From Flavobacteriales bacterium (lineage in GTDB: Bacteria > Bacteroidota > Bacteroidia > Flavobacteriales_D > Crocinitomicaceae), in the NCBI GenBank assembly GCA_947497485.1, contig CANMHB010000012.1, forward strand, positions 25,917-89,916: a stretch of DNA of 64,000 bases, read 5' to 3'. How positions within the stretch are numbered: the stretch's first letter is position 1; every line of letters begins with the position of its first letter. A program made the translations under genes and the position numbers. The notes under the pieces were generated by a model. That model was not told the DNA's origin. It saw only the letters and a program-made list of their open reading frames with translations, and ran no database searches. This document shows, in pieces, positions 53,510 to 60,965 of this stretch.

Positions 53510-54451
53510 TTGAGTGAATTAAATATCTATATTGTAATTTTAATAGTTGCAGTTGTCTTCGTCAACTCATCTTTTAGTTTTTTAAAAAGTTCTAGTGTTT
53601 CCTTTAATCAAAACCTATTAATCATTGAGAAATTAACTACCTATTCAACAAAACCCAAAAATTATAGAAATACGCCGAAAGGATATGCTACATTTGGTTA
53701 TGTGGTTCAAGGTAGTATAAACAATGAACTAGCCACGTTTGAATATAAGTTTCCATTTATTGATAATCGAAATGTGACGTTTAAAGCTGAAATACATGCT
53801 AAAAATATGTCTTCAACGGTCAGTAGTTTTGGAGCTCATAATTCTTATTTTGCAACAGTTAATGATTATGGTCGTTTACAATCCACAGATCATTCGTTTC
53901 TGCTCAGAAATATGAATAAAGACGGCTTTTTTTATCGATCAGCAAAAGCCTATGATTACGGTGTGAACTACAATGAAATTATAGCTCAATCTAAGGATTT
54001 GACTTTGGAAATAGCTCGATTCATTAAAAATGAGTTGGAAGGAAATTACACGTACGAAAATTGTGTTGCAGCTGCCTTGAATTTTGTTCAATATATTCCT
54101 TACGGTCAACCAGAATTCGATGCGGGAGAATACACCTATTTTGGAGTTTCCATTCCGCATGAGTCATTTGTAATCTCATATTGCGATTGCGATAGTAAAT
54201 CGGTTTTGCTTTGCGGAATTCTTCAGCACTTACTTGAATTCCCTGAGGATAATTTGATTATGGTTTATTGTACGATGGAAAAAGAGCATCACATGATTGT
54301 TGGTGTTCACGGACTAAATTATCCTGGGCAGAGACATATTCATAATGGTAGAGAATACTTATTATTAGAAACGACGGTTCCAATATCTTTGCACCAACAG
54401 CTTAATAATAAGTTTGAAAATATTCATGTGTATAATCTTGAGATGGTATGA
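53510..54451 (+). CDS. Operon gene A: N-terminally TM-anchored protein with a transglutaminase/papain-like Cys-His-Glu signature
   Basis: 313-aa ORF with a TTG start, the first start codon in the open frame. TM helix IYIVILIVAVVFV. Motifs ALNFVQYIPYG, YCDCDSKSVLLCGIL (Cys227), HHMIVGVHG (His261) and LLETT (Glu287). Paralogous to gene H at 59592. Confidence 0.6.
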   Translation: MSELNIYIVILIVAVVFVNSSFSFLKSSSVSFNQNLLIIEKLTTYSTKPKNYRNTPKGYATFGYVVQGSINNELATFEYKFPFIDNRNVTFKAEIHAKNMSSTVSSFGAHNSYFATVNDYGRLQSTDHSFLLRNMNKDGFFYRSAKAYDYGVNYNEIIAQSKDLTLEIARFIKNELEGNYTYENCVAAALNFVQYIPYGQPEFDAGEYTYFGVSIPHESFVISYCDCDSKSVLLCGILQHLLEFPEDNLIMVYCTMEKEHHMIVGVHGLNYPGQRHIHNGREYLLLETTVPISLHQQLNNKFENIHVYNLEMV

Positions 54452-55230
54452 TTGCGTTTTTTGAATGGTTCGCATCTTTAGAATCCTATCAAGCATGGAT
54501 TTTATTTGCAGGTGTTGCATTCCTAATGGCAATAACGCCATATTTTTCTTTATTGAAGCGGTTGACTTGGCTTTTTTTTTCTCGAGAGAAACCTCAAATA
54601 ATTGACTTCAGTTGGAGAATATCGCCCGATTTTTTGATTTTTGAGGATAAGGATAAACAACTTTATTACCAAAGTCAATCTAAGTATGTATTTCAAGGTT
54701 GTCCAATTATTCTTTCATGGAATGTGAAAGGAGCCTATCGTATTGATATTCAGCCAAATTTTAAGGATTTAAAGGAAAATAGCCTTATTGCAATTGTGAA
54801 GCCAACTGGAAATAATTTTACCTTAATTGCTTATACTTTGAAGGGTAAAATCGAGCAAAAAGTGACTATTTCCGATGAACAAGTACTTCGTTTGAATACC
54901 TCAAATCTTGGAGGAGCAAACGCATTCGCACAACCAATAAAAAGGATTAAAGAATCATCCCTTAGTGAGGACTTGCCAATAAAATTGCATCTCCCAAAAT
55001 ATAGTGGATTAATTTTCACAAAACTGTCTAGGCTTAAGGGAAGACTTCTGGGGATAGATAAAATTTCAACTATTGAGCCTGCTAATAAACGGATTCAATA
55101 CAAAAGCGATCTTAATAGCGATAAAATGCAACTAAATAATTACATTTATAAGCAGAAAATTGTAAAAGGTTTTGATTTTAAGCCTTCAAAATATAACCAA
55201 GTATTAAACCAGAATAACAAAATAAAATAA
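54448..55230 (+). CDS. Operon gene B: TM-anchored hypothetical protein with a beta-rich domain
   Basis: 260-aa ORF with an ATGA overlap to gene A. TM helix WILFAGVAFLMAITPYF. Beta-sandwich-like stretch CPIILSWNVKGAYRIDIQP...FTLIAYTLKGKIEQKVTI. Confidence 0.6.
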   Translation: MIAFFEWFASLESYQAWILFAGVAFLMAITPYFSLLKRLTWLFFSREKPQIIDFSWRISPDFLIFEDKDKQLYYQSQSKYVFQGCPIILSWNVKGAYRIDIQPNFKDLKENSLIAIVKPTGNNFTLIAYTLKGKIEQKVTISDEQVLRLNTSNLGGANAFAQPIKRIKESSLSEDLPIKLHLPKYSGLIFTKLSRLKGRLLGIDKISTIEPANKRIQYKSDLNSDKMQLNNYIYKQKIVKGFDFKPSKYNQVLNQNNKIK

Positions 55231-55232
55231 GT

Positions 55233-59595: not shown

Positions 59596-60482
59596 GAAAC
59601 CAAAAGAATTTTTTCAAATTTGGCAATCTAGCCTTTTGGGTTATTCTTGTAATAATTGCTTTGAATTTATTTCCATTTCTCAACGACAAACTTTACAGAC
59701 AAGAACATTTATCCGAGTGGTATAATAATTTTGATACTACACAAATCAATATAGAAGAAGAGGATGAATTGAAAAAAGACGAAACCGATACGACCGAAGA
59801 AAAACAAAACGATAACAAACAAATGACGACTTTCAAGTGGAAATGGAATGATTATGCCGGAAGAAATTGTTCTGTTAGTTTTAAACTTGAAAATGAAGAG
59901 TTTGAAAAATCGAAACGATACAGAGAAACTTATTCATCGTTTTTTTCTGAAGGAAGTCTTTACTCCGATTTTGTTAAACAATGTGATAAACCTATTTCAA
60001 TAATCAGTAAAGCGTTAAAATTGGAAATGGATAAAAGGAATTTAAGGGGAATTGACAGATTAAATTTTGTTGTATCTGCGATTCAAACTCCTCCATATAC
60101 CTATGTTGAAATGAGAAATTGTAAACAAGGAGGCGATTGCAAACCAAACGGTTGTTGCCCCTATGTAAAGCCATTTGCGGTATACACTCCAACTGAATAT
60201 GTCTTTCAAGAAACGGGGGACTGTGATACGAAATCACTTATCGCTTTTGCTCTTCTTAAAAAATTAAATTACAATGTGGCTGTTATGGTTGGAGATACGC
60301 ATGCTGGACCGCATGCTATGCTCGGTGTCGCTGGTTTTTCTGCTGAAATTCCAAGTTCTAGTGTTCGACACAATGGGACAATTTATCAACCTTGGGAGAC
60401 AACAAATTTTGCAAATGAGTTTCAGCTGGGAAATATGAGGATGTGGAGAAGTTGGAGGAATTGGAAAGTAGTATTAAATTAA
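59592..60482 (+). CDS. Operon gene H: TM-anchored protein with a transglutaminase/papain-like Cys-His-Glu signature, paralog of gene A
   Basis: 296-aa ORF with an ATGA overlap to gene F. TM helix LAFWVILVIIALNLF and an acidic linker. Motifs RLNFVVSAIQTPPYTY, GDCDTKSLIAFALL (Cys211), PHAMLGVAG (His241) and PWETT (Glu269). Confidence 0.6.
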   Translation: MRNQKNFFKFGNLAFWVILVIIALNLFPFLNDKLYRQEHLSEWYNNFDTTQINIEEEDELKKDETDTTEEKQNDNKQMTTFKWKWNDYAGRNCSVSFKLENEEFEKSKRYRETYSSFFSEGSLYSDFVKQCDKPISIISKALKLEMDKRNLRGIDRLNFVVSAIQTPPYTYVEMRNCKQGGDCKPNGCCPYVKPFAVYTPTEYVFQETGDCDTKSLIAFALLKKLNYNVAVMVGDTHAGPHAMLGVAGFSAEIPSSSVRHNGTIYQPWETTNFANEFQLGNMRMWRSWRNWKVVLN

Positions 60483-60494
60483 AATTGAAAAATT

Positions 60495-60965
60495 ATGGAA
60501 TCTTTAAATGTTATCATTGCGGCACTTGTAACAGTTTTATATCTGATCGTTGCCATAAAATTATTATTGGCCTTCTTTCATAAAATTACTCAACCCTTGA
60601 ATACGGCTTCTGGAATTCTTCTAACCGGCGTGTTAATCGGATTTGGAATTAACCTTAATGATTTTTCGGAAATCGCGGTTTCATCTTTTTTCTATTATGC
60701 TAAATCGAATAATTTGCTAATTGGAATTGGCTTTTGGTTCCTATTTGCATTATTGGCATTTATTTTTTCTTACGTACTTTTTAGATTTAGTTTCCAAATG
60801 ATAAATTGGGCTACACCAGAAAATGAAAAGGCTGAACTTGGAAAGAATAATGTTATTCTTGGAATAATACATGGTATTTCATTTATCATTCTCTGTTTTG
60901 TTCTTAGTGATTCTATTACCATTTTAGCGAATACGTTGATAAGTTATCCTACTTTCCCAAATTAG
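60495..60965 (+). CDS. Operon gene G: small four-TM membrane protein
   Basis: 156-aa ORF starting 12 nt after gene H, with four hydrophobic helices. No recognised motif. Confidence 0.55.
   Translation: MESLNVIIAALVTVLYLIVAIKLLLAFFHKITQPLNTASGILLTGVLIGFGINLNDFSEIAVSSFFYYAKSNNLLIGIGFWFLFALLAFIFSYVLFRFSFQMINWATPENEKAELGKNNVILGIIHGISFIILCFVLSDSITILANTLISYPTFPN

Follow-up and report, generated by a model that had tools for sequence, protein, structure and literature searches.

A conserved, polymorphic eight-gene membrane-protein cassette of freshwater Flavobacteriales and its possible link to type VII-like secretion

Gene content of the locus

The subject of this analysis is a cassette of eight genes, A–H, located on the + strand at positions 53510–60965 of a 64,000-nucleotide stretch of DNA from a Flavobacteriales bacterium of the Crocinitomicaceae (assembly GCA_947497485.1, contig CANMHB010000012.1, positions 25,917–89,916), hereafter referred to as the window. 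An open reading frame (ORF) scan reproduced exactly the tight packing reported in a preliminary description of this DNA, with successive junctions of −4, +2, +24, +5, −4, −4, and +12 nt. The longest ORF for gene F begins at 58603; its orthologs start at the ATG at 58627, giving the E/F junction of −4. In public records, the products of A–H are annotated as hypothetical proteins. All eight contain at least one strongly hydrophobic segment, in agreement with the preliminary description: a hydropathy scan of 19-residue segments assigned one transmembrane (TM) segment each to A, B, D, E, and G, four each to C and F, and three to four to H. For A and B, the positive-inside rule gave ambiguous counts as to which side of the membrane their domains occupy. 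The genes and the predicted features of their products are as follows.

53510..54451, + strand: gene A, 313 aa, TTG start; N-terminal TM, beta-rich domain, predicted LapG-like transglutaminase-fold cysteine peptidase domain
54448..55230, + strand: gene B, 260 aa; one N-terminal TM, conserved region of about 100 aa (residues 50–150), poorly conserved basic tail
55233..56441, + strand: gene C, 402 aa, DUF4407; four TM, with TM3 and TM4 separated by a variable coiled-coil loop (~140 aa)
56466..57518, + strand: gene D, 350 aa; cytoplasmic domain of about 130 aa, GC..GC motif, poly-Leu TM, C-x9-C, coiled coil, divergent OmpA-like domain
57524..58630, + strand: gene E, 368 aa; N-terminal domain and TM as in D, coiled coil, C-terminal jelly-roll beta-sandwich
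58627..59595, + strand: gene F, 322 aa; four TM, distant DUF4407-like paralog of C
59592..60482, + strand: gene G, 296 aa; N-terminal TM, acidic linker, predicted Cys-rich LapG-like peptidase domain
60495..60965, + strand: gene H, 156 aa, DUF350; small polytopic membrane protein

Conservation and distribution

The gene order A–H is retained, with no gene missing, in each related locus of sufficient length (more than 20 independent loci, numbered here with the prefix L), even where identity to the window proteins falls to 26–36%. Such recurrence is far beyond chance and, as it extends across loci with different flanks, bears out the proposal of the preliminary description that A–H constitute a conserved, co-localized unit. 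In many related loci, H is followed by a second DUF350 paralog (gene I), which is absent from the window. Within the cassette, the genes form mirrored paralog pairs (A B C D | E F G H), in which D pairs with E, C with F, and A with G.

The carriers are all freshwater Flavobacteriales (Crocinitomicaceae/Cryomorphaceae). When one genome per species was scanned, the cassette was found in 10 of 185,579 species, all represented by freshwater Flavobacteriales metagenome-assembled genomes (MAGs). Among 5.8 billion proteins, homologs of A, D, and E formed 60, 40, and 19 clusters, respectively, all of full-length orthologs, and the window proteins sit in 90%-identity clusters of 13–58 member sequences. 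Two of the related loci, L012 (CAMDDG010000074.1) and L014 (CAMDAH010000004.1), are titled 'Chitinophaga pinensis' and 'Chryseobacterium gleum'; their cassettes and upstream genes have close relatives in Crocinitomicaceae MAGs (L013, L030), and the labels look wrong.

The preliminary description could match the gene set to no described defense, secretion, or motility system, and searches of the eight proteins against Pfam, PADLOC, NCBIfam, and PHROGs likewise found none. PADLOC-DB v2, which includes Zorya and Kiwa, gave zero matches at E ≤ 1 for all eight proteins, and NCBIfam gave no equivalog match for any of them. PHROGs gave no annotated match and the A family is absent from IMG/VR, so that no phage lysis cassette (holin/endolysin/spanin) was recognized. 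Solved structures provided no sequence-level match for any of the eight proteins, nor did sequence and profile searches of the Protein Data Bank (PDB) with the A, B, C, E, F, and G families. Judged by the homology of their own genes, A–H belong to no described system.

Domain analysis of the cassette proteins

Genes A and G are predicted, from structural modeling and alignment, to encode membrane-tethered LapG-like transglutaminase-fold cysteine peptidases. The two are paralogs (hhalign 98.2%, E 6e-14). An AlphaFold2 (AF2) model of A had a predicted local distance difference test (pLDDT) score of 91.7, and its best six Foldseek matches in the PDB were all LapG, a periplasmic cysteine protease of the transglutaminase-like type (probability 0.99–1.0, E 9e-3 to 3e-2), led by 4u65_E and 4fgo (probability 1.0, E 9e-3; TM-score 0.41–0.56 on the target); 4u65 is a LapG–LapD output-domain complex. 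The model and these matches support the transglutaminase/papain-type fold that had been suggested for A. The preliminary description had named A and H as the two proteins with an ordered Cys...His...Glu signature; this holds for A, while the second such protein is G (296 aa) and H is a DUF350 protein. The labels G and H were swapped there, and the residues Cys211 and Cys227 that it singled out are those of G and A, respectively.

The proposed catalytic residues are conserved among homologs in both families: C227, H261, and E287 are invariant across 34 aligned A sequences, and C211, H241, and E269 across 11 aligned G sequences. G also possesses four further invariant cysteines (C177, C183, C188, and C189), which suggest a periplasmic location; its peptidase domain is probably in the periplasm. 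A resembles the LapG/BTLCP proteins (bacterial transglutaminase-like cysteine proteinases, COG3672) in its catalytic fold, with a nucleophilic Cys at a helix N-terminus followed by His and an acidic third residue, and G resembles them in the probable periplasmic location of its domain. In contrast to LapG/BTLCP proteins, the third triad residue in A and G is Glu rather than Asp, both proteins are tethered by an N-terminal TM, and neither has a sequence-level family match. The 60 ortholog clusters of the A family gave no Pfam match, including to the BTLCP/transglutaminase families; the best Pfam match of the G family, Transglut_core, fell below threshold (E 0.006), and some members had a weak CEP76-peptidase match. 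A Foldseek search of A against viral structures returned one COG3672 match and was otherwise uninformative. Neither the cassette nor its flanks encode a LapD receptor, a LapA-type adhesin, or type I secretion system (T1SS) domains. The most divergent cassette, L018, is preceded by an extra ORF (9421–9888) whose product, a soluble transglutaminase-like protein of 156 aa, aligns with the A family (hhalign E 1.5e-5) and has a Cys-His-Asp triad; in this minimal paralog, the Asp aligns with the invariant Glu of A. An IS3-family transposase (L018:17502–18700) directly follows gene H of the same cassette.

Genes D and E encode paralogous bitopic proteins that have in common an N-terminal cytoplasmic domain of about 125 aa, all-beta in the AF2 model of E, and a Cys-flanked poly-Leu TM (hhalign 99.9%, E 2.7e-31). 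The alignment of D with E confirmed the earlier account of both as single-pass proteins with Cys-rich juxtamembrane segments and poly-Leu helices. The divergent OmpA/MotB-like domain that had been noted at the end of D matches Pfam OmpA (PF00691) at 23.9 bits, under the cutoff of 27.2 (E 5e-5), and many orthologs are annotated with PF00691. Within this domain, R293 and an N-x-N-M-R-V motif are conserved; the Asp of the G-H-x-D peptidoglycan-binding motif is Ala in the window copy and variable across the family. D has the same layout as MotB/ZorB stators and the long-form TssL of the type VI secretion system (T6SS), with one TM between a cytoplasmic part and an OmpA-like domain in the periplasm. 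Unlike MotB/ZorB, its TM lacks a conserved Asp, and no MotA/ExbB/ZorA-like partner is present (no PADLOC/NCBIfam match); unlike TssL, its N-terminal domain is homologous to that of E and predicted to be all-beta rather than DotU-like; and unlike peptidoglycan-anchored platforms, the Asp of its GHTD motif is not conserved.

The C-terminal jelly-roll of E (AF2 domain pLDDT ~80–88) is bracketed by the invariant residues C249 and C367. Foldseek matched the E model to generic GOLD/CBM jelly-rolls only. No Pfam family covers this module, and Pfam scans of all B and E family members were empty. The first half of the jelly-roll domain (its first ~60 aa) recurs in giant surface proteins (846–2,737 aa), frequently in several repeated copies; those identified (P0152, P0154, P0174, P0182, and P0183) also carry Calx-beta, DUF5977, or SLH domains.

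Gene C encodes a full-length DUF4407 protein (PF14362; 196.5 bits against a cutoff of 31.3, E 8e-58), confirming the earlier assignment. Its cytoplasmic C-terminus is highly conserved, and polar residues in or at the TM segments (N99, D101, R102, E145, R298, and E305) are invariant. F is related to the C family over TM2–TM3 (hhalign 75%, E 2.5e-5), the weakest of the three pairings. Among DUF4407 proteins, C is thus a full member and F a distant one, and members elsewhere, for example in Lak-type megaphages, occur without the other seven genes. Homologs 29–42% identical to C are encoded in Lak-type megaphages and other huge phages, including Prevotella phage Lak-A2 (L022, 485037–486071) and IMG/VR contigs of 158–554 kb (L023–L028). 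None of the other seven cassette genes lies near these phage DUF4407 genes, and Lak megaphages were rejected as the home of the system, as they carry only the DUF4407 gene. H matches DUF350 (PF03994) at 28.3 bits, with a cutoff of 26. B has no relatives beyond the cassette in Pfam, PDB, and hhalign searches. Literature searches on DUF4407, on Amphi-Trp, on DUF350, and on transglutaminases in anti-phage activity returned nothing relevant, and no function for DUF4407.

Extended loci with ATPase and WXG100-like genes

In at least five deeply diverged loci (L004, L030, L096, L097, and L098), and partially in L012, a same-strand upstream block is joined to A–H(I). The block comprises, in order, genes for an ATPase of the FtsK/SpoIIIE family (~1,090 aa), three helical proteins (91–97 aa), a 220–260-aa protein (p4), a small protein of 76–97 aa, and a Fib_succ_major-domain protein (Fib). 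The Fib/A junctions in the five full loci are −8, −1, 0, +23, and +47 nt, and that in L012 is −1. Three of the loci (L096, L097, and L098), which contain distant A homologs, have the same 15–17-gene layout in different genomic contexts. Intermediate forms also occur: L014 carries s5 (one of the WXG-like small-protein families), Fib, and A–I, and L035 carries Fib and A onward.

The ATPases have diverged to 41–65% identity yet remain linked to the cassette. Against the PDB, they match EccC (4nh0, E 5.7e-25), YukB (1.7e-17), and EccC5 (1.4e-16), with true FtsK reaching only 2e-5. The five EssC-like ATPases contain one G..G.GK[ST] (Walker A) motif and no hydrophobic segment (maximum H < 1.5). Profile matches of the small proteins include ESAT-6-like HP0062 (3.4e-5), EsxA (2e-3), and EsxB (8e-3), and two of these proteins have weak precomputed Pfam matches to WXG100 (PF06013); their central motif is W-x-D, not W-x-G. 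PDB searches with the p4 family gave no match. No TM was found in the ATPases, the 220–260-aa protein, the Fib protein, or an extra 210-aa ORF in L097. In the sequences of the WXG-like hairpins, no hydrophobic stretch is visible. Because the ATPases and the tested upstream products lack TM segments and all cassette products are membrane proteins, the cassette alone qualifies as a candidate membrane platform in the extended operons. In the literature library searched, no paper was found that describes type VII-like or WXG100 systems from Bacteroidetes or Flavobacteria.

The majority of loci, the window among them, are core-only, with an intact and conserved cassette. The stretch free of such an ATPase around the window cassette extends from −53 to +13 kb. 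In L096, a full locus lies beside an MMPL gene orthologous to the one adjoining the window cassette (85% identical), where the window has A–H only. On a short contig, L052:1–777 (− strand) encodes a fragment of an EssC-like ATPase, 44% identical to that of L030, divergently oriented beside the Amphi-Trp gene described below; the ATPase block may thus also lie on the other side of this landmark in some genomes.

Locus polymorphism and genomic context

Homology between loci begins at A and stops at H or I; in this respect, the cassette behaves as a self-contained unit. Between L006 and L013, the flanks are 85–89% identical in nucleotide sequence (Amphi-Trp 97% and YdjM 90% identical in amino acid sequence), and the cassette proteins are 28–49% identical. 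L009 and L001 have in common a 2.5-kb upstream flank of 94% nucleotide identity beside cassettes that are nearly unalignable. Similarly, the MMPL neighbor, 85% identical at the amino acid level between the window and L096, adjoins cassettes that are 30–47% identical. Similarity is also mosaic within the cassette, with window C being 77% identical to C of L017 but 44% to that of L006, and window G being 69% identical to G of L009 and 44–51% to others.

A recurrent landmark beside the cassette consists of a divergent Metallophos phosphoesterase gene and a gene for a 70-aa Amphi-Trp protein (PF20068), as in L006:5706–6877, L001:4572–6879, L009:259–2541, and many of L029–L095. The Amphi-Trp protein is 82–100% identical across loci with cassettes only 30–60% identical, and the cassette or other variable DNA is inserted alongside it. 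In an Amphi-Trp-anchored metagenome scan, the cassette lay beside the landmark, lay 0.8–9 kb away from it, or was absent from related loci that retain the landmark. In some genomes, a three-gene module separates Amphi-Trp from the cassette (L009:2591–4883, L030:10365–13099, L034:10179–12995, and L035:5496–8430); it encodes a PPP-type phosphatase of about 250 aa, a 541–566-aa protein with C-terminal TM helices, and an acidic 115-aa protein.

In the window, the cassette is flanked upstream by icd (Iso_dh, 4.5e-69), a DUF4403 gene, and an OmpA gene, and downstream by a gene for an MMPL/RND-superfamily transporter; these domain matches agree with the housekeeping-type flanks given in the preliminary description. 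The upstream flank is common to no other locus, and the OmpA and DUF4403 genes were rejected as parts of the system, as they lie beside the cassette nowhere else. Across loci, flanks are mostly housekeeping, with occasional AbiEii, GmrSD, and IS3 transposase neighbors; a defense-island context was not enriched, with 1–3 of 53 flanking ORFs being defense-like. A mobile-element origin was rejected, as there were no plasmid matches, no members of the A family on viral contigs, no flanking direct or inverted repeats, and no shift in GC content. Two noncoding features border the cassette.

53430..53509, + strand: AT-rich upstream intergenic region of 80 nt, presumed promoter region
60975..61027, + strand: weak hairpin and U-rich tract after H (fold −9.7 kcal/mol, z = −1.5, not significant), possible transcript end

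Cross-locus homology starts only at A, downstream of the presumed promoter region, and a sigma-70 promoter scan upstream of A remained at background level.

A possible type VII-like membrane module

We propose, tentatively and with a probability of roughly 0.45, that the cassette family could supply the membrane module for a type VII-like secretion system, as yet undescribed, in freshwater Flavobacteriales. The coupling of the cassette to EssC/EccC-like ATPase and WXG100-like genes in its relatives argues for type VII-like secretion rather than for an abortive-infection (Abi) module. Type VII secretion systems (T7SS) are considered to belong to monoderm and mycolate bacteria, in which two membrane architectures are known (ESX in Actinobacteria and Ess/T7SSb in Firmicutes). 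As in those systems, one operon in the related loci brings membrane proteins together with an EssC/EccC-type ATPase and several WXG100/ESAT-6-like hairpins (~95 aa). The differences are that A–H are not homologous to Ess/Ecc parts, the ATPase of the related loci has no TM and only a single Walker A motif was detected in it, the host belongs to the Bacteroidota, a diderm phylum, the A/G proteases have a transglutaminase rather than a subtilisin fold, the cassette includes an OmpA-like, predicted peptidoglycan-binding subunit (D), and the window copy is without ATPase and substrates. In T7SS, putative parallels by role can be drawn between D/E and EssB/EccB (bitopic, with domains on both sides of the membrane), between C/F and EsaA (polytopic, with a long helical extracytoplasmic part), between A/G and the mycosin MycP (membrane-tethered proteases), and between H and EssA (a small TM protein). 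In its strain-level polymorphism and mosaicism, the cassette locus also resembles T7SS toxin loci and antagonism loci.

Beyond the directly observed conservation, paralogy, domain folds, invariant residues, polymorphism, and linkage to ATPase and WXG100-like genes in relatives, we infer how such a module might be assembled, what its subunits might do, that it would secrete, and how the core-only state might function. The eight proteins would form a single hetero-oligomeric envelope complex of mirrored paralog pairs. The cytoplasmic beta domains of D and E, together with the conserved C-terminus of C, could dock the soluble ATPase; C and F, with their conserved intramembrane acidic residues and long extracytoplasmic coiled coils, may constitute the channel or the periplasm-spanning part; and D would pin the complex to peptidoglycan. 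A and G may serve as processing proteases for substrates or components, a role that mycosin has in ESX systems, and H may be a small accessory subunit. In the window strain, the partners could be encoded elsewhere, or the cassette could be a derived, ATPase-independent form.

Several observations weigh against this proposal. A search with hidden Markov models (HMMs) for the ATPase, WXG100-like, p4, and Fib genes found none in the 64-kb window or in the 10 kb past its 3' end, nor any within ±10 kb of at least ten other core-only loci; these loci show clearly that the cassette persists with no ATPase beside it. Pfam, NCBIfam, and PDB profiles revealed no homology of A–H to EssA, EssB, or EsaA, or to EccB, EccD, EccE, or MycP. 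The ATPase is without TM anchors and apparently without the three-P-loop layout of canonical EssC, and the similarity of the small proteins to WXG100 is weak (W-x-D for W-x-G). No outer-membrane component for a diderm host is evident, and all carrier genomes are MAGs of uncultured organisms.

A more far-reaching version of the proposal, which we regard as somewhat doubtful taken as a whole, would make the family a third architecture of type VII-like secretion and the first one from diderm Bacteroidota. The membrane apparatus, unrelated throughout to Ess/Ecc, would be built from DUF4407 channels and LapG-like proteases, both in pairs, together with a bitopic pair anchored to peptidoglycan and DUF350; divergent 'alleles' of the locus would be swapped between strains, probably for interbacterial antagonism; and the core-only form would be a functional, autonomous derivative.

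Alternative explanations

The main rival, which we judge unlikely, casts the cassette as an envelope-embedded conflict system that works on its own, whether to exclude phages, to abort infection, or to confer immunity between bacteria; the T7SS-like block would then be an optional addition or a neighbor in a variable hotspot. In such a system, D and E would sense perturbation of the envelope or peptidoglycan and thereby release or activate the A/G proteases, and C and F would serve as membrane-permeabilizing effectors. The prevalence of core-only loci fits this explanation, as do presence/absence polymorphism beside the same Metallophos/Amphi-Trp landmark and the mosaic, deeply divergent cassette types found at one site in near-identical backgrounds. 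The conserved intramembrane acidic residues of C, the DUF4407 homologs of Lak-type megaphages, and the occasional AbiEii, GmrSD, and IS3 transposase neighbors point the same way. However, none of the eight proteins matches PADLOC, the flanking ORFs are seldom defense-like (1–3/53), no nucleic-acid sensor or effector is present, and the range is very narrow (10/185,579 species genomes), unlike that of typical defense systems. This explanation would also leave open why five diverged loci have the cassette tightly coupled in translation to an EssC-like ATPase that lacks TM segments. Of the suggestion in the preliminary description that the operon resembles a conflict or abortive-infection module or an envelope machine, the conserved unit stands; the defense part finds little direct support, given the absence of PADLOC matches, the mostly housekeeping flanks, and the absence of the cassette from phages and plasmids.

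Less likely, and in our view improbable, is a LapD/LapG-style 'inside-out' proteolytic switch or envelope-remodeling device, in which D and E would relay a cytoplasmic signal that leads A and G to cleave a surface, adhesin, or peptidoglycan-linked target. LapG is the best structural match of A, including in the LapG–LapD output-domain complex 4u65; D and E each cross the membrane once and have conserved domains on its cytoplasmic and periplasmic sides; and giant surface proteins with Calx-beta or SLH domains also contain the periplasmic module of E. The cassette, however, encodes no LapD-type HAMP/GGDEF/EAL domains, LapA-like adhesin, or T1SS, A and G fall under every Pfam threshold for the BTLCP/transglutaminase families, and the Foldseek E-values are only ~1e-2. 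Such a switch would account for neither the ATPase/WXG100 linkage nor the strain-level polymorphism.

It is very improbable that the window copy is a decaying, functionless remnant of a full locus after loss of its ATPase/substrate half: the soluble half is indeed absent within −53/+13 kb, the full L096 locus does sit beside the orthologous MMPL gene, and intermediate forms exist (L014 and L035), but none of the eight ORFs is disrupted, their junctions remain coupled, the invariant catalytic and structural residues are kept, and the core-only layout is conserved in many distinct genomes, with the window proteins each belonging to well-populated clusters (13–58 members at 90% identity).

Were the type VII-like proposal correct, it would extend the ATPase–WXG100 principle to a diderm phylum and show how such a machine anchors to peptidoglycan. 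It would also supply the first functional contexts for DUF4407, DUF350, and three families without a Pfam entry (B, the D/E N-terminal domain, and the A/G peptidase). Whole-cassette replacement between strains at fixed chromosomal sites also makes the cassette likely to determine how strains of abundant lake bacteria interact. Should the link to secretion prove wrong, the cassette would still be a conserved, polymorphic eight-protein envelope complex without a described counterpart.

Other features of the window and its surroundings

Just upstream of icd, a + strand ORF at 48456–49529 matches baeRF_family3 (E 1.3e-26) and is adjoined by a radical-SAM protein gene on the − strand (46423–48318). 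The baeRF proteins are bacterial archaeo-eukaryotic release-factor-like proteins, usually considered in connection with conflict or translation rescue. Beyond the MMPL gene on its downstream side, about 6–8 kb past the 3' end of the window (L099:17092–19475), lie genes for a MoxR-type AAA+ ATPase (bpMoxR/AAA_3), a DUF58 protein, and a SpoIIM/DUF8413 membrane protein. Large type IX secretion cargo proteins are encoded on the + strand at 24563–28315 (eight PKD domains and CHU_C) and 32575–35409 (SprB repeats and Por_Secre_tail), and SprB/OmpA and PorP_SprF genes occur beyond the window at L099:20495–22634; together, these genes are consistent with a gliding Flavobacteriales host.

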